Shown piece by piece: positions 4,021 to 9,613 of a DNA stretch of 32,448 nucleotides. A program made the translations under genes and the position numbers. Below the pieces are notes generated by a model. It was not told the DNA's origin, did not search any database, and saw nothing but the letters and a program-made list of their open reading frames with translations. Every line of letters starts with the position of its first letter. Position 1 is the stretch's first letter. The DNA comes from an uncultured Pirellulaceae bacterium (lineage in GTDB: Bacteria; Planctomycetota; Planctomycetia; Pirellulales; Pirellulaceae): NCBI GenBank assembly GCA_964583205.1, contig CAZOXC010000001.1, positions 1-32,448 on the forward strand, written 5' to 3'.

Positions 4021-4689
4021 ATGCCAGATATTGAACTTAACCTGTCGCCTTTGCAGGGACTCGATGAGCAGATTGCCCAGTTGCAGGCTTGCGGGCGGTT
4101 GTTTTACCAACGCGGCTGGTCGGTTGGGACCAGCAGCAACTACAGTTGTGTCGTCAACAATGACCCACTTGAATTACTGGTCACTGCCAGCGGAAAAGAC
4201 AAAGGTAATCTGGCGGGTAACGACTTTGTCCGGGTCAACCGGCAGGGAAAACCGATCGTTCCCGATCAACCCAAATCCTCAGCCGAAACCATGTTGCACG
4301 TGGTCGCAGCCGAACATTGCCAGGCCAACGCCGTACTTCATACGCACAGCGTTTGGAGTACGATCCTTTCGGAAAAATATTTCGTCGATGGCGGGATCTG
4401 GATCGAAGGCTTTGAAATGCTCAAGGGCCTCTCGGGGGTAACCACCCATGAGCACAAAGAATGGCTGCCGATTTTTGACAACACTCAGGACATTCCTCGA
4501 CTGGCGGCCGATGTCACCGAAGCGCTCGACAAAAACCCTCAATCCCAATTTCACGGGTATCTGATTCGCAAACATGGTTTGTATACTTGGGGACGTGACC
4601 TGGCAGAAGCCAGACGTCATGTCGAAATTTTCGAATTCCTGCTGGAATGCCTGGGGCGTCAACTTTCACTGGACCCTACTCGCACTTGA
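4021..4689 (+). CDS. mtnB: Methylthioribulose-1-phosphate dehydratase (class II aldolase/adducin fold)
   Basis: 222-aa ORF with the GWSVGTSSNYS and LLVTASGKDKG blocks and the HTHS zinc-ligand motif typical of MtnB/APIP1. Confidence 0.8.
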   Translation: MPDIELNLSPLQGLDEQIAQLQACGRLFYQRGWSVGTSSNYSCVVNNDPLELLVTASGKDKGNLAGNDFVRVNRQGKPIVPDQPKSSAETMLHVVAAEHCQANAVLHTHSVWSTILSEKYFVDGGIWIEGFEMLKGLSGVTTHEHKEWLPIFDNTQDIPRLAADVTEALDKNPQSQFHGYLIRKHGLYTWGRDLAEARRHVEIFEFLLECLGRQLSLDPTRT

Positions 4690-4729: not shown

Positions 4730-5092
4730 ATGCCAAAAATCACTGTAGACGGAAACGACTTTGAAGTTGCTCAGGGTAAACGGCTGGTCAAAGCCTTGAC
4801 CGAAGACGCCGCCACCGACCAGCTTCATGCTTGTGGCGGACAGGGAAAATGCACTACCTGTCGAGTCCGTTTTGTGGCGGGCGAGCCTGATAAAATGACG
4901 GCCGCCGAAAAGGAAACACTAAGCGCAAGGGATATCACCGAAGCCGGCGTGCGACTGAGCTGCCAGATCCTTTGCGATTCCGAGATGTCTGTCGAGGTGA
5001 TCAGTCGCCTGGAAGGTAGCGGGCGTCAGGATCAAGGCGGTGCTGTGTACGACGAAATACAACCGCAGCCTGTCGAGTGGGTTGAACGTTAA
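4730..5092 (+). CDS. Plant-type [2Fe-2S] ferredoxin
   Basis: Cys pattern ACGGQGKCTTCRVRF ... RLSCQI. I start it at the internal ATG 4730 (MPKITVDG...), because the tracked ORF start at 4574 would overlap mtnB by 116 nt. Confidence 0.75.
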   Translation: MPKITVDGNDFEVAQGKRLVKALTEDAATDQLHACGGQGKCTTCRVRFVAGEPDKMTAAEKETLSARDITEAGVRLSCQILCDSEMSVEVISRLEGSGRQDQGGAVYDEIQPQPVEWVER

Positions 5093-5100
5093 GCCAGACA

Positions 5101-5189
5101 GGAACCTCCAAACGGAATCTCGCCACTGGAATCCCGCTACTGGAATCCCGCTACTGGAATCTCGCTACTGGAAATGTCGCTGGAGAATC
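5101..5189. repeat. 14-bp tandem repeat, about 6 units (4 well-conserved units at 5114..5169)
   Basis: Units read ggaatctcgccact / ggaatcccgctact / ggaatcccgctact / ggaatctcgctact, flanked by degenerate units. The array begins 9 nt after the ferredoxin stop codon. Confidence 0.9.
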
Positions 5190-5233
5190 AAGCGGAACAA
5201 ATTACCTTCCGCAGCAATTTACAAAAACAGTCA

Positions 5234-5261
5234 TTTACAAAGACCGTTAATCACTTATACT
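5234..5261 (+). promoter_or_regulatory. Candidate sigma70-like promoter (TTTACA - 16 nt - TATACT)
   Basis: Each hexamer matches the consensus at 5 of 6 positions. The -10 element ends 8 nt before the ATG of the first Lys-rich mini-ORF, implying a near-leaderless transcript. An atttacaaa direct repeat occurs at 5217 and 5233. Confidence 0.3.
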
Positions 5262-5269
5262 TGGCCTCC

Positions 5270-5323
5270 ATGAACAGCCGCCTCAAGAAATACGGTAAGA
5301 AGAACAAACGCAAAGCGTTTTAG
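5270..5323 (+). CDS. Lys-rich leader mini-ORF 1 (MNSRLKKYGKKNKRKAF)
   Basis: ATG...TAG, 17 codons, 6 of them Lys (AAG/AAA). It is followed 30 nt later by an intrinsic terminator. It is not in the ORF track because it is too short. Confidence 0.5.
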   Translation: MNSRLKKYGKKNKRKAF

Positions 5324-5353
5324 GCCTGGCTGAGATATTGAGAGATTCATAAA

Positions 5354-5378
5354 CCCTGCCAGACGGCAGGGTTTTTTT
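5354..5378 (+). terminator. Intrinsic terminator / attenuator 1
   Basis: Perfect 7-bp stem ccctgcc-agac-ggcaggg followed by a T7 tract. The 13-mer ggtttttttgttt recurs 18 nt downstream at 5388..5400. Confidence 0.75.
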
Positions 5379-5419
5379 GTTTACCAAGGTTTTTTTGTTT
5401 GTCAGCGCCGACGGAACCA

Positions 5420-5488
5420 ATGTTAAAAAAATCTGAATTCAAAAAGAGTAAGTCTAAGCCACACCGCGGTGACCCGTTGGCCTGCTGA
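5420..5488 (+). CDS. Lys-rich leader mini-ORF 2 (MLKKSEFKKSKSKPHRGDPLAC)
   Basis: ATG...TGA, 22 codons, 6 of them Lys. It is followed 22 nt later by the second intrinsic terminator. Confidence 0.5.
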   Translation: MLKKSEFKKSKSKPHRGDPLAC

Positions 5489-5510
5489 TGATTTACTCAG
5501 TAATTCCAAG

Positions 5511-5537
5511 CCTGCGGGAAACCTCGCAGGTTTTTTT
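5511..5537 (+). terminator. Intrinsic terminator / attenuator 2, immediately upstream of hcs
   Basis: 8-bp stem cctgcggg-aaac-ctcgcagg (one G.U pair) followed by a T7 tract. The T-tract ends 23 nt before the hcs ATG at 5561. Confidence 0.8.
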
Positions 5538-5560
5538 ATTGCCATCTCAAAGAAAACACT

Positions 5561-6787
5561 ATGCACCAAATCAACATTCCTGACATGATCAACAGCCAGG
5601 TCCAACCGGCCATTGGCGACTTCAAGATCATCGAATCGACTTTGCGCGAGGGAGAGCAATTCGCCAACGCGTTTTTCTCGACCGAAGACAAAATTGAAAT
5701 CGCCAGATTGTTAGATGCGTTTGGCGTGGAGTACATCGAGCTCACTTCGCCCTGTGCCTCGCCACAAAGCGCCTCAGACTGCCGGTCGATTGCCGATCTG
5801 GGTCTGAACGCAAAAACGCTGACTCACATTCGCTGTGCCATGGACGATGCCCGGCAGGCCGTGGATACCGGTGTGGATGGCATTGATGTGGTGATTGGAA
5901 CTTCGAGTTTCCTGCGCGACTTTGGCCACAAAAAATCCATTGAACAGATTCTCGATCTGGCCATGGAAGTTATCGGCTGGTTGAAACAACAAGATGTTGA
6001 AGTTCGTTTCAGCACCGAAGATTCACTTCGCAGTGACTTGAAAGACCTGGTTCGAGTCTACCAGATGGTGGATGAACTGGGCGTTGATCGAGTTGGAATT
6101 GCCGATACGGTCGGCGTGGGAACTCCGCAAACCATTGGACGACTGGTCAGCATCGTCGGCCAATTGGTCTCGGCCGATATCGAGTTTCATGGACATAACG
6201 ATACCGGCTGTGCAATTGCAAACTCCTATGCCGCATTGGTCGCCGGCGCGAAATTCATGGACACCAGTGTGCTGGGAATCGGGGAACGCAACGGAATCAC
6301 TCCGCTGGGCGGACTTGTGGCAAGACTGTATGCCGAGTCCCCTGATCTGGTTTCCAAATACGATTTGCACTTGCTGGGCGAGCTCGATCACCTGGTCGCC
6401 CGCTTGGTGGGTGTCGATGTTCCTTTCAACAACTACATCACCGGGTTCGCAGCCTTCACACACAAAGCCGGCATCCATGCGAAGGCGGTTTTGAACAATC
6501 CTTCAACTTACGAGATTCTGAATCCGGAAGATTTTGGACTGAGTCGCTACATTCATGTCGCTCATCGCCTGACAGGATGGAACGCAATTCGCGATCGAGC
6601 CAATCAACTTCAGCTGAACCTCAGCGACGATCAAATCAAAGCCATCACTCGGCAAATCAAACAGATCGCCGACATCAAACAACTGACTCTGGACGATGTT
6701 GACCAGCTGCTTTACGCCTCTCAGTCAACCAAAGAGAAAACTGAAACCGAACTCAACGAGACTTGCCAACAGGGAGCACAATCATGA
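5561..6787 (+). CDS. hcs: Homocitrate synthase (LYS20/Thermus HCS type, DRE-TIM metallolyase)
   Basis: 408 aa with [39 protein letters not shown] and [14 protein letters not shown]...RLTGWNAI. There is no LeuA_dimer regulatory domain, which argues against IPMS or CimA. Confidence 0.85.
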
Positions 6788-8052
6788 GCCCGGACAATTC
6801 CACACCCGACAATTCAACAATGACACTGGCGGAACAAATTTTTTCCCGCTCGGCCGGACGACCGGTCCGCGCCGGAGAATTGGTGGTAACGCAGCCCGAT
6901 GTCGCCATGGGCCACGACTCGCTCACGCCCAGCATTATCAAGATCATGCGTGAAGAGCTGGAGATTGAAAACGTTCACAATCCTGATCAAGTCGTCCTGG
7001 TGATGGATCACGTTGCACCGGCTTCCACGGTAGGGACCGCCAACGCACAATCGAAGATTCGCAAGTTCGCAACGGAGCAAGGTATTCGCTTGTTAGATGT
7101 GGGCCGAGGGATCTGTCATCAGGTTCTGGTCGAAGAGAAAATCGCCTCGCCAGGAAAGATCATCATCGGTTCGGACTCGCATTCCACTTCTTATGGAGCG
7201 GTTTCTGCATTCGGCACCGGCATGGGCTCGACCGACATCGCTCTGTGCTGGGGTACTGGCCAAGCCTGGTTTCGAGTCCCCGAGACGATTCAAGTCCTGG
7301 TGCAAAACCGTTTTCAACCAGGCGTGGACGCAAAAGATTTGGCGCTCTGGCTTTGCCGGCAAATGACAATCAACGGCGCAACCTATGATTCGATCGAGTA
7401 CCAGGGGCTGGCATGGCTGCCTCTCAACGAGCGTCAGACAATCGCCAGTATGGCCATCGAGTTAGGGGCCAAGGCCGGCATCTTCGCACCCGAACCTACG
7501 GAATCCGATTGGCTGCAAGTCAACTCGAACGCCATTTACAAATCTACCTTCGACGTCGATCTAAATGAACTTGAGCCCCAGGTCGCAATACCGCACTCGG
7601 TGGATCATGTCGTAGGGATCTCGGAAATTGGCCAACGAGACATCGACGTTGTGTTTGTGGGAACTTGCACCAACGGTCGAGCCGAAGATATTCAACGAGT
7701 CGCCGATATCGTTGCCGGAAAACAGCTTCGCAGTCGCATGATTGTCACGCCGGCTTCCAGTCGCGAGATGGAGCGATCGATTGAAAACGGAGCAATGCAA
7801 AAACTGATTGCCGCCGGAGCAACTTTCACGACGCCCGGTTGTGGGCCTTGTATGGGTCGTCACCAAGGAGCATTGGCCGACGACGAAGTGTGTCTCTCCA
7901 CAGGCAATCGAAATTTCAAGGGTCGCATGGGTTCTCCCGAATCACAGATTTACCTGGCCTCGCCAGCCGTCGCTGCGGCAACCGCCCTGGCCGGTCAAAT
8001 CTGCGATCCTCGCGAATTCATCGATTCGGAATTGGAACTCCAAAACACTTAA
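6784..8052 (+). CDS. hacA: Homoaconitase / 3-isopropylmalate-dehydratase-type large subunit
   Basis: Aconitase-family motifs [14 protein letters not shown] and PGCGPCMG (Fe-S Cys ligands). The start is taken at ATG 6784, which forms an ATGA overlap with the hcs stop. Alternative starts are 6763 and 6820 (MTLAEQIF). Confidence 0.85.
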
Positions 8053-8123
8053 GCGGCCGCAACAGCCGCTACGACCAACTGCATATCTTGAACACTGATA
8101 ACTGAACACTGAAACTCAATCCC

Positions 8124-8666
8124 ATGAACAACACCAACCTGTCAACCATTTGGAAATTCGCTGACGACGTCGACACGGACCAGATTGTTCCCGGCCGCTA
8201 CGCACCGTATATGCGACCCGATGAAGATGTCGGCAACGCAGCGTTTATCGAAGCACATCCTGAGTTTAACCAGCAAGCCAAACCTGGCGACATCATTCTG
8301 GCCGGCAGTAATTTCGGTTGTGGTTCCTCGCGCGAATATGCACCATTGGCACTGCGGCGGCGTGAAGTCAAAGCCATTATCGCCAAAAGTTTCGCTCGGA
8401 TCTTTTTTCGCAACGCGATTAACCTGGGCATTCCCGTTTACACGGCGCCCGATCTCTACGATCAAATCGCTGATCAGGAGCAAGTCGAGTTTGATCTGCA
8501 GTCTTCTCTGGTTCGAGTTCAAGGTCGCGAGTTCGCGTTGCCGCCCTTGCCTGAATTCGCTCAGCAGACGATTGAAGCAGGCGGCATTTCCAACTTCGTC
8601 AAGCAACACGGTACATTTCCGGGCACCTTAAGTGACTCAAAAACATCGCTCGCAGGAGGCAACTGA
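8124..8666 (+). CDS. hacB: Homoaconitase / IPM-dehydratase-type small subunit (short LeuD type)
   Basis: 180 aa with the GSNFGCGSSREYAP swivel-domain motif. It directly follows the large-subunit gene. Confidence 0.85.
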   Translation: MNNTNLSTIWKFADDVDTDQIVPGRYAPYMRPDEDVGNAAFIEAHPEFNQQAKPGDIILAGSNFGCGSSREYAPLALRRREVKAIIAKSFARIFFRNAINLGIPVYTAPDLYDQIADQEQVEFDLQSSLVRVQGREFALPPLPEFAQQTIEAGGISNFVKQHGTFPGTLSDSKTSLAGGN

Positions 8667-9613
8667 TGGCCCGTCAACTGTGCGTGATCCCCGGCGATGG
8701 AATCGGACCGGAAGTGACTTCGGCCACAGTTTCCATTCTCAGATCGATCGACCCGGACTTGAACATCATCGAGGCCGAGGCCGGTTGGGGCACATTCGAA
8801 AAGCTTGGCACTTCTGTACCGCAAGAAACACTGGAGGCGATTCGCGAAACTGGAGCCGCTTTGTTTGGCGCTGTTTCATCGCCCTCGCGAAAAGTCGCAG
8901 GCTATCGCAGTGCGATCCTGACGATGCGACAGGAACTGAACCTGTTCGCCAACATCCGGCCGGTCGACAGCAACTGGTCGCAGGGCTCGCGCGAAGGTGC
9001 CAACTTTATCGTCGTCCGCGAAAATACCGAGGGACTCTATGTTGGTCGCGAAACTGAAACCGACGAAGGCGCGATTGCAGAACGAGTTATCACTCGACAA
9101 GCATCAACTCGAATCGGTCAACAAGCGGCTCGCCTGGCAATCCAACTGGGACTCCCCAACATCACCGTGGTTCACAAAGCCAATGTGCTTCCCAAATCCG
9201 ATGGCCTGTTTCGCGATTGCGTAATCGAGGCTATTCAGCGCGAGTGCGATCAAGCTTCACACTCGATCGAGGTTGATGAATTGTTGGTCGATATCGCCGC
9301 TTTTCATATCGCTTCGGATCCCAGTCGTTTTCGAATGATTGTGACCACCAACATGTTCGGCGATATCCTTTCTGATCTGGGAGCAGTCTGGTGCGGCGGA
9401 ATGGGACGAGCCCCCAGCATCAATCTTGGTGATCAGGTTGCACTGGCCGAACCCGTTCACGGTTCCGCGCCGGACATTGCCGGAAAAGGCCTGGCCGATC
9501 CCACCGCAACCATCTTGAGCGCCGCCCTGCTCTATCGATATCACTGGCGGGAAGAATCACTGGCCAACCAACTGGAAACTCTGGCCAACGACGTAACCAC
9601 AACTGTCGAGTGA
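8666..9613 (+). CDS. hicdh: Homoisocitrate/isocitrate/isopropylmalate-family beta-decarboxylating dehydrogenase (short form)
   Basis: 315 aa with the family signature NMFGDILSDLGA. A TGATG overlap with the hacB stop suggests translational coupling. Confidence 0.8.
   Translation: MARQLCVIPGDGIGPEVTSATVSILRSIDPDLNIIEAEAGWGTFEKLGTSVPQETLEAIRETGAALFGAVSSPSRKVAGYRSAILTMRQELNLFANIRPVDSNWSQGSREGANFIVVRENTEGLYVGRETETDEGAIAERVITRQASTRIGQQAARLAIQLGLPNITVVHKANVLPKSDGLFRDCVIEAIQRECDQASHSIEVDELLVDIAAFHIASDPSRFRMIVTTNMFGDILSDLGAVWCGGMGRAPSINLGDQVALAEPVHGSAPDIAGKGLADPTATILSAALLYRYHWREESLANQLETLANDVTTTVE

Follow-up and report, generated by a model that had tools for sequence, protein, structure and literature searches.

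The 32,448-nt window analysed here, i.e. the whole stretch of DNA from an uncultured Pirellulaceae bacterium (GenBank assembly GCA_964583205.1, contig CAZOXC010000001.1, positions 1 to 32,448), contains two lysine-rich mini open reading frames (ORFs), each followed by a terminator, which are arranged in series at positions 5234–5537, upstream of the homocitrate synthase gene hcs. This arrangement, including the mini-ORFs, hairpins and T7 tracts listed in a first-pass annotation of the DNA, was read directly in the sequence; the parts of the leader and the operon described below lie on the + strand. The two units probably act as ribosome-mediated, Lys-codon-dependent attenuators in series on a transcript starting at about position 5268, the first of them belonging to a cross-phylum leader family marked by the motifs CUGG and CCAG, with its ORF leaderless or nearly so. 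Conservation of both modules and covariation of the module-1 antiterminator support the serial lysine attenuator proposed in the first-pass annotation, and we infer that it responds to lysine or lysyl-tRNA.

Module 1 begins with a sigma-70-like promoter, composed of TTTACA (5234–5239), a 16-nt spacer and TATACT (5256–5261). This element had already been proposed in the first-pass annotation, and a consensus scan recovered it (10 of 12 matches) as the sole promoter-like site between positions 4500 and 6000. Its -10 hexamer ends 8 nt before the ATG of leader ORF 1 (5270–5323), suggesting that this ORF is leaderless or nearly so. ORF 1 encodes the peptide MNSRLKKYGKKNKRKAF, with Lys at six of 17 codons (5285, 5288, 5297, 5300, 5306 and 5312), and ends with the stop codon 5321–5323. 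A 7-bp GC hairpin (5354–5371) is located 30 nt past the stop codon and is followed by a T7 tract (5372–5378). The complete intrinsic terminator 1 (5351–5378) comprises a stem of 10 pairs (5351–5360/5365–5374), the loop AGAC and the U7 run (5372–5378), with the sequence CCAG (5359–5362) at its apex. Antiterminator strand 1, CUGGC (5326–5330), begins 5 nt past position 5321, where the stop codon starts, and its partner is GCCAG (5358–5362); this pairing, previously proposed by eye, is exactly the antiterminator that is conserved and covaries in the family. The last codons of ORF 1 are spanned by a stop-proximal hairpin (5306–5320, AAACGC-AAA-GCGUUU), a candidate pause hairpin.

Related leaders were collected by anchoring loci on the homocitrate synthase protein (HCS). 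This yielded 160 loci from genomes and metagenomes, to which eight planctomycete-like loci were added via an index of 5.8 billion proteins, the survey being confined to regions upstream of hcs or lysW-hcs operons. The nearest relatives by HCS (70–77% identity) are Pirellulaceae/Mariniblastus metagenome-assembled genomes, followed by many Chloroflexota; the only match closer than 77% in genome contigs, metagenome contigs and the protein index is a 2.7-kb contig with an identical HCS. Upstream of hcs orthologues, the mini-ORFs have been conserved together with their Lys codons and the hairpins, as would be expected from the interpretation in the first-pass annotation: module 1 occurs in 13 planctomycete-like loci (the window, L001–L004, L006, L161–L163 and L165–L168) and module 2 in seven. 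A promoter equivalent (8–10 of 12 matches) is present in all 13 module-1 loci, with the -10 box ending 6–10 nt before the start codon and a -35 box reading TTTACA or TTTACG in 11 of them. All 13 contain homologous Lys-rich ORFs of 15–22 codons, conserved at the peptide level only in their Lys/Arg richness; that of L002 has only 3 Lys codons. Likewise, a stop-proximal hairpin of 4–9 bp was found in 13 of 13 leaders despite differing sequences (AAACGC/GCGUUU, GGCGC/GCGCC, CAUCA/UGAUG, ACGUUUCGU/ACGAAACGU), and a role as a pause hairpin appears plausible. Counted from the first base of the stop codon, CUGG follows at a distance of 4–11 nt in 12 of 13 loci, and it overlaps the terminal Trp codon in L165; the 5' arm of the module-1 terminator ends with CCAG(A) in the planctomycete-like loci.

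To assess how frequent the design is, stretches of 700 nt preceding hcs were analysed in 144 hcs-anchored loci, a terminator being defined as a hairpin plus T-tract not more than 90 nt after the mini-ORF. Lys-rich mini-ORFs with a terminator occurred in 33 of 144 loci, compared with 1 of 144 reverse complements and 0 of 144 shuffled sequences, while Lys-rich ATG mini-ORFs alone were present in 76 loci (antisense, 7; shuffled, 3). The same design of Lys-rich ORF and terminator was observed in many Chloroflexota loci. Cores such as KKSKK recur, and the pattern KK.{1,2}KK is present in 40 of 90 leader ORFs. Within the window, nine terminator-like sites were found on both strands, of which only terminators 1 and 2 are preceded by a Lys-rich mini-ORF. 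None of the leader mini-ORFs has been called as a gene in the eight loci for which gene calls are available.

The CUGG/CCAG family, found in Pirellulaceae-like and Chloroflexota genomes, is characterized by a Lys-rich ORF, CUGG at or near its stop codon, and CCAG at the apex of the terminator 5' arm; module 1 of the window shows all three features. Since whole-leader MAFFT alignments (A1, A2, A3) were too ragged, they were replaced by an anchor-based analysis and a trimmed alignment of 44 sequences (A4). Among 44 terminators with apical CCAG, 41 have CTGG 8–80 nt upstream, as compared to 22% in shuffled sequences and 36% at other hairpin-plus-T sites, and just 3 elements offer more than one candidate CTGG. 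The antiterminator helices reach past the four core pairs with locus-specific extensions, resulting in 5–14 bp (e.g. CCGUUUUUCUGGUU/GACCAGGAAAACGG and GAUCUGGUAAGUU/GACUUACCAGAUC). In alignment A4, standard pairs occupy 90.5% of the antiterminator cells (shuffled, 81.7 ± 1.1%), two-sided changes occur in 35 cells (shuffled, 14.5), and the covariation score is 0.241 (shuffled, 0.118), none of these values being reached in any of 500 shuffles; the aligned sequences share ancestry, however, so that these controls overstate significance. Slid registers of the helix are paired to 25–41%, and the pair directly 3' of CUGG is U-A in 18, C-G in 10, U-G in 9, G-U in 2 and A-U in 1 of the sequences; both this variety of pair types and the slid-register control point in the same direction as the shuffle counts. 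The terminator helix is 93.7% paired in the 44 sequences, with compensatory changes at 8 of 9 pairs. Tests of single antiterminator helices against shuffled sequences were uninformative (median p = 0.28), the information residing in the family-level comparison only. Translation of CUGG varies with the locus (Trp-stop, Ser-Gly-stop, Leu-Val, or none where it follows the stop codon), indicating that the constraint acts on the RNA and not on the peptide. Besides, the sequence GCTT(G/A)C is conserved about 8 nt 3' of CUGG in Chloroflexota leaders (A4 columns ~21–26); in some loci, a possible pairing of this motif with the Lys-codon region GCAAGAAG was recognized by eye.

When a Lys codon occupies the A site, the ribosome shields approximately 12–15 nt of RNA downstream. 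In 45 of the 48 family elements, a Lys-rich ORF terminates between -11 and +36 nt relative to CUGG; its last core Lys codon precedes CUGG by 13–28 nt in 44 of these and by 6 nt in the other one, L056_22. Such spacing is what ribosome gating predicts, since a stalled ribosome would just spare CUGG and a ribosome on the stop codon would cover it. For module 1 of the window, folds of nascent RNA ended at 5364, in which a 29-nt ribosome footprint was kept single-stranded, contained CUGGC:GCCAG for each ribosome position on a Lys codon, whereas the helix was missing when the stop codon was occupied. The competing RNA structure on which the first-pass annotation had made its interpretation depend is provided in module 1 by this helix, as judged from the folds with defined ribosome positions and from the covariation in the family.

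Module 2 resembles module 1 in its overall composition. Leader ORF 2 (5420–5488) encodes MLKKSEFKKSKSKPHRGDPLAC, with Lys at six of 22 codons (5426, 5429, 5441, 5444, 5450 and 5456) and a stop codon at 5486–5488; a Pfam search with the peptide gave no match. An 8-bp hairpin with one G.U pair (5511–5530) is located 22 nt past the stop codon and precedes a T7 tract (5531–5537), and the complete intrinsic terminator 2 (5508–5537) has a stem of 11 pairs (5508–5518/5523–5533), the loop AAAC and the U7 run (5531–5537). The module recurs in six other planctomycete-like loci (L001, L002, L004, L161, L164 and L165); since nothing closer than 77% HCS identity is available apart from the 2.7-kb contig, comparison is limited to these seven loci. 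Homologues of ORF 2 encode MPQFNKSFSKKSKKRRGLPLA in L002, MTQRPNFLKKKFKKSRGNPLA in L164, MNQELKQTAKKAKKTRGPP in L161, MKTTKKNKKKSKRRRPGDS in L165 and MFKPKQKSKSHLKRYPRLRPRHD in L001, and another homologue is present in L004. Terminator 2 is near-identical (AGCCUGCGGG...CUCGC(A/G)GGCU) in L002, L161 and L164 and occurs as a variant in L004; the window, L002, L164 and L161 have in common the sequences (C/U)CGCGG and (N)CCCGU(U/G) besides the nearly identical terminator. That module 2 is a conserved unit of Lys-rich ORF and terminator is thus well supported. The apical CCAG is absent from module 2 of the window, where a degenerate UUGGC:GCCUG core with a CCCG:CGGG extension can be recognized by eye, and the module would at best be a diverged relative of the CUGG/CCAG family.

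The details of the module-2 switch are a model. Two candidate antiterminator strands within 5464–5481, AT-a (CCGCGGU, 5464–5470) and AT-b (CCCGUUGGC, 5473–5481), are both complementary to the terminator-2 5' arm GCCUGCGGG (5510–5518). In five nearly invariant sequences, 88.9% of the cells are paired for AT-b and 77.4% for AT-a, and neither pairing nor covariation in these five loci decides between them. The pairing of CCGCGG (5464–5469) with the terminator arm, as proposed in the first-pass annotation, is retained as one of two overlapping candidates; its neighbour AT-b fits slightly better, and neither of them covaries. In the no-ribosome fold, a predicted helix P1, formed by 5401–5414 and 5473–5491, sequesters the module-2 antiterminator strand. 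P1 was obtained in folds of the window only, and a shorter GCCGAU:GUUGGC pairing was seen by eye as its counterpart in L002. With the footprint blocked, a ribosome at the Lys codon 5456 allows AT-b to form, and a ribosome at the Lys codon 5450 leads to an AT-a-based helix. The sequence GGTTTTTTTGTTT is present twice (5370–5382 and 5388–5400), and when the RNA is folded without a ribosome, the later of the two U-tracts is base-paired to the A-rich start region of ORF 2 (5424–5434), so that the ORF 2 start codon is enclosed; such pairing might gate initiation at ORF 2.

The module-2 peptides end with RGxPLA(C) in the window (5462–5488), L002 and L164, and with RGPP in L161. The third codon position of the variable residue x is always C and lies within CCCG, which points to a constraint at the RNA level. 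RNA-level constraints explain most of the conservation of the peptide end, and a role of the nascent peptide may contribute. The hcs-proximal leader peptides of Chloroflexota end with KKPDxxLVSC(A).

The first-pass annotation had regarded the duplicated arrangement as unusual. It is not peculiar to the window, since two modules in series were found in at least 14 loci of two phyla. Tandem loci comprise six planctomycete-like representatives (the window, L001, L002, L004, L161 and L165) and eight Chloroflexota loci with two full CUGG/CCAG units (L010, L013, L022, L090, L094, L106, L121 and L156), and their terminators are typically located ~200–400 nt and 6–82 nt from hcs. In the window, no promoter-like site was detected in the consensus scan of 5262–5560, and in L001 the distance from terminator 1 to ORF 2 is as short as 16 nt, leaving no room for a second promoter. 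The arrangement is conserved, and the two ORF-plus-terminator units may share one transcript. Seven planctomycete-like loci (L003, L006, L162, L163 and L166–L168) contain module 1 alone; the occurrence of one or two modules in close relatives indicates that module number changes readily in evolution. The gap between terminator 2 and hcs depends on the start codon, which is ambiguous: with ATG 5561 (408 amino acids) the 23 nt given in the first-pass annotation are correct, but with ATG 5585 (400 amino acids), which is the call for the identical protein P0001 of the public index, the gap amounts to 47 nt.

In the proposed mechanism, transcription would start at about 5268, just past TATACT, and ORF 1 would be translated leaderless or nearly so. 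With an ample supply of lysyl-tRNA, the ribosome would reach the stop codon 5321–5323 and cover CUGGC (5326–5330), so that terminator 1 folds and transcription ends. When lysyl-tRNA is scarce, the ribosome would stall on the Lys codons (5285–5314) and leave CUGGC free to pair with GCCAG (5358–5362) before the 3' arm of the terminator is made; hairpin nucleation would thereby be blocked and RNA polymerase would read on. Module 2 would repeat the decision on those transcripts that escape module 1: a stall at the Lys codons 5426–5458 would free CCGCGGU and CCCGUUGGC (5464–5481) for pairing with GCCUGCGGG (5510–5518), while a ribosome at the stop codon 5486 would cover the antiterminator strand and permit terminator 2 (5508–5537) to form. 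Expression would correspond to the product of two read-through probabilities; relative to a single module, its basal level would be reduced and lysine would elicit a steeper response. Such multiplicative control is the simplest reading of the tandem modules. Most likely, the operon is switched on when lysine is short.

Several observations weigh against this mechanism or restrict it. The antiterminator of module 1 in the window is minimal, with 5 bp closing a 27-nt loop, and in the folds terminator 1 always wins at equilibrium, so that the switch must be kinetic; besides, ribosome-free nascent module-1 RNA was predicted to form the antiterminator, too. Minimum free energy folds tentatively delimit a 'region 1' (5275–5283), which can pair with 5322–5332 and would sequester the antiterminator strand in the absence of a ribosome (-13.5 kcal/mol in the window, p = 0.07), but a classical 1:2 anti-antiterminator helix is unsupported across the 13 loci (mean, -8.2 kcal/mol; shuffled, -7.5 kcal/mol). 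In module 2, neither AT-a nor AT-b shows covariation or a two-sided change in the five loci; with a ribosome at the early Lys codons of ORF 2, helix P1 persists and termination is still predicted; and a ribosome at the ORF 2 stop codon masks AT-b, but the fold keeps the AT-a helix (5464–5470/5510–5517), AT-a lying at the trailing edge of the footprint. The module-2 ORF of L004 (2523–2690) lacks a stop codon before the terminator and reads through it, reflecting either a fault in the assembly or a deviation from the model. L164 contains module 2 alone, with a promoter of its own as judged by eye, and a weak internal promoter may also exist in the window. The strict module test was passed by only 33 of the 144 hcs loci, making the element common but not universal. 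Finally, the support for this organism and for the members of the CUGG/CCAG family is computational.

Alternatively, one module alone might regulate hcs, the other being either a duplicate in decay or a unit of its own. Module 1, for instance, might produce a self-contained short transcript with promoter, small ORF and terminator, and module 2 and hcs might be transcribed from a separate weak promoter. The variable number of modules among close relatives, the seven planctomycete-like loci with module 1 only, the solitary module 2 of L164 with its apparent own promoter, and the missing covariation of the module-2 switch would all fit. However, there is no promoter-like site in 5262–5560, the gap of 16 nt between terminator 1 and ORF 2 in L001 is too narrow for one, and in six planctomycete-like loci both modules have retained Lys-rich ORFs, strong terminators and complementary strands. 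Two full CUGG/CCAG modules in each of eight Chloroflexota loci are likewise unexpected for a decaying copy, and we consider regulation by a single module unlikely. It appears still less likely that the attenuators lack specificity for lysine and monitor how translation proceeds as a whole, ribosomes being generally slowed by stretches of Lys and Arg codons (polybasic or poly-A stalling, translation capacity). Such a role would be compatible with the Arg richness of the leader ORFs, with A-runs formed by some Lys codons (AAAAAAA, 5425–5431) and with the mere 3 Lys codons in module 1 of L002, but it is Lys and not Arg that recurs, as seen from the KKSKK-type cores and the 40 of 90 ORFs with KK.{1,2}KK. 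In addition, all occurrences of the element precede hcs or lysW-hcs operons, the survey having been confined to such loci, and the Thermus leader, related in logic, reportedly depends on its Lys codons.

No attenuation would take place if the mini-ORFs encoded functional small basic peptides, or if ordinary terminators merely happened to follow chance ORFs. The C-terminal RGxPLA motif common to the module-2 peptides might be taken as an indication of peptide function, but the peptides are otherwise unconserved, the conserved nucleotides fall in different frames, and the codon for x, always ending with the C of CCCG, reflects a constraint on the RNA. Together with the covarying antiterminator, the lack of a Pfam match and the large enrichment over antisense and shuffled controls, this makes an explanation without attenuation very improbable. 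Control of the terminators by a metabolite-binding riboswitch, for lysine or another ligand, or by a protein-dependent antiterminator can hardly be upheld. Lysine riboswitches are the usual means of lysine control in many bacteria, but no evidence supporting a riboswitch or a protein antiterminator was found in the window. No Rfam family reaches its gathering threshold anywhere in the window, which led to the rejection of the lysine riboswitch RF00168 and other known leaders, and an E-value search of 5050–5620 retrieved sub-threshold leader and small RNA models only, the best being amino-acid leader models with E = 0.08–0.3. Moreover, each leader segment is only ~90–110 nt long and mostly taken up by the ORF.

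To our knowledge, Thermus provides the single experimental case of lysine leader-peptide control; the lysine (alpha-aminoadipate) cluster of Thermus thermophilus is reportedly regulated by a leader-peptide attenuator that depends on Lys codons. Otherwise, lysine genes are known to be controlled by riboswitches or proteins. In the Thermus loci (L169 and L170, 853–990), we read directly the leader ORF MLAREKKLGRRGLG with its stop codon and the antiterminator GCCGGGGG:CCCCCGGC, and in Oceanithermus (L172, 835–985) the leader ORF MKYREAKKLYAGGAG with its stop codon. Both genera have a promoter close to an ORF of 14–15 codons with two adjacent Lys codons, and one terminator. Their antiterminator GCCGG(G/A)GG:CC(C/U)CCGGC covaries between them, and the -10 box of Oceanithermus ends 8 nt before the ATG, which suggests that this leader ORF is translated leaderless, too. 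No leader of this kind was found at the hcs locus of Deinococcus maricopensis (L173). Like the leader in the window, that of Thermus is located upstream of an hcs of the same pathway and has a sigma-70-like promoter near a short ORF with Lys codons; an intrinsic terminator precedes hcs, and the shared logic includes an antiterminator strand within the 3'-terminal part of the ORF. However, it has one module instead of two and two Lys codons instead of six per ORF. The switch of Thermus and Oceanithermus is unrelated, as it lacks CUGG/CCAG and its antiterminator covers the base of the terminator arm, whereas that of the window is directed at the apex. Compared with the Chloroflexota and Pirellulaceae group, Thermus HCS is only distantly related to the window protein. 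The Thermus-type leader thus matches that of the window in logic, but not in RNA family.

With the classical attenuators of Proteobacteria (trp, his, leu, thr, pheA, ilv), the leader in the window has in common an ORF rich in codons for the regulated amino acid and, according to the model, mutually exclusive terminator and antiterminator structures chosen by the position of the ribosome. It differs from them in the amino acid, which is lysine, in an ORF that would be leaderless or nearly so, in a very short antiterminator aimed at the apex, and in a small stop-proximal hairpin that takes the place of a conserved 1:2 helix; Rfam leader models remain below threshold. Tandem riboswitches and T-boxes likewise consist of two complete serial units, each with a sensor and a terminator, that respond to the same ligand and presumably yield a sharper response; there the RNA directly senses a metabolite or tRNA, whereas the sensor in the window would be the translating ribosome. 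The lysine riboswitch (L box, RF00168) also causes lysine-dependent premature termination before lysine genes, but by another mechanism. The leader of Salmonella mgtCBR contains tandem attenuators with two short ORFs responding to ATP and prolyl-tRNA (Lee and Groisman 2012, PMC3641672). There, two short ORFs in one leader each govern an attenuation decision, and the effects are combined (PMC3641672), as the model proposes for the window; in the window, by contrast, both ORFs are Lys-rich and would report one signal two times, and the canonical intrinsic terminators are separate for the two modules. For Chloroflexota and Planctomycetota, no report on lysine leaders turned up in our literature search, which does not prove that no such report exists.

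The operon downstream of the leader (5561–9613) consists of hcs (5561 or 5585 to 6787), the genes of the large (6763–8052) and small (8124–8666) subunits of homoaconitase, and the homoisocitrate dehydrogenase gene (8666–9613), as assigned with NCBIfam models; homocitrate synthase was identified by TIGR02146 with 469.5 bits, above the curated cut-off. This hcs-hacAB-hicdh operon codes for the alpha-aminoadipate stage of lysine biosynthesis. A gene for the Zn-ribbon protein LysW (C-terminal EDWGE) is located between leader and hcs in L002, L004, L161 and L166–L168, but not in the window. Since HCS proteins of the Pirellulaceae-like and Chloroflexota groups share 70–77% identity and both groups possess a CUGG/CCAG lysine leader, comparison of the sequences suggests that the operon moved between phyla together with its regulatory leader. 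In the window, a 14-nt tandem repeat (GGAATCCCGCTACT, 4.3 copies, 93% matches) extends from 5114 to 5173 and ends ~60 nt before the -35 box of the leader promoter. Arrays of short repeats were also observed near the lysine leaders of L161 (12-nt unit, ~1131–1210) and L163 (13-nt unit, ~1113–1151), as were ~100-nt repeats in L162 (700–1100). Such arrays may be binding sites of a regulator or a mere feature of intergenic DNA in these genomes.

The CUGG/CCAG element is a variant on known leader-peptide attenuation and does not represent a new principle. We would give even chances to the broader proposal that it defines an uncatalogued family of lysine-sensing attenuators of Planctomycetota (Pirellulaceae), Chloroflexota and related hcs operons, in which a ribosome-gated CUGG:CCAG pairing blocks the terminator apex, the promoter-proximal ORF is leaderless, and tandem modules for the same amino acid recur as a design selected to keep basal expression low and the response to lysine steep. 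If so, the tandem units would be the ribosome-based counterpart of tandem riboswitches, and ribosome-mediated control of lysine biosynthesis would be widespread in two poorly studied phyla, by means of a switch which is compact, well defined, supported by covariation and often doubled. Recognition of the family would improve annotation, as no Rfam model exists and the mini-ORFs go uncalled. The doubling would provide a natural system to study what serial attenuation buys, be it dynamic range, steepness or noise, and close relatives with one or two modules make its value directly testable.

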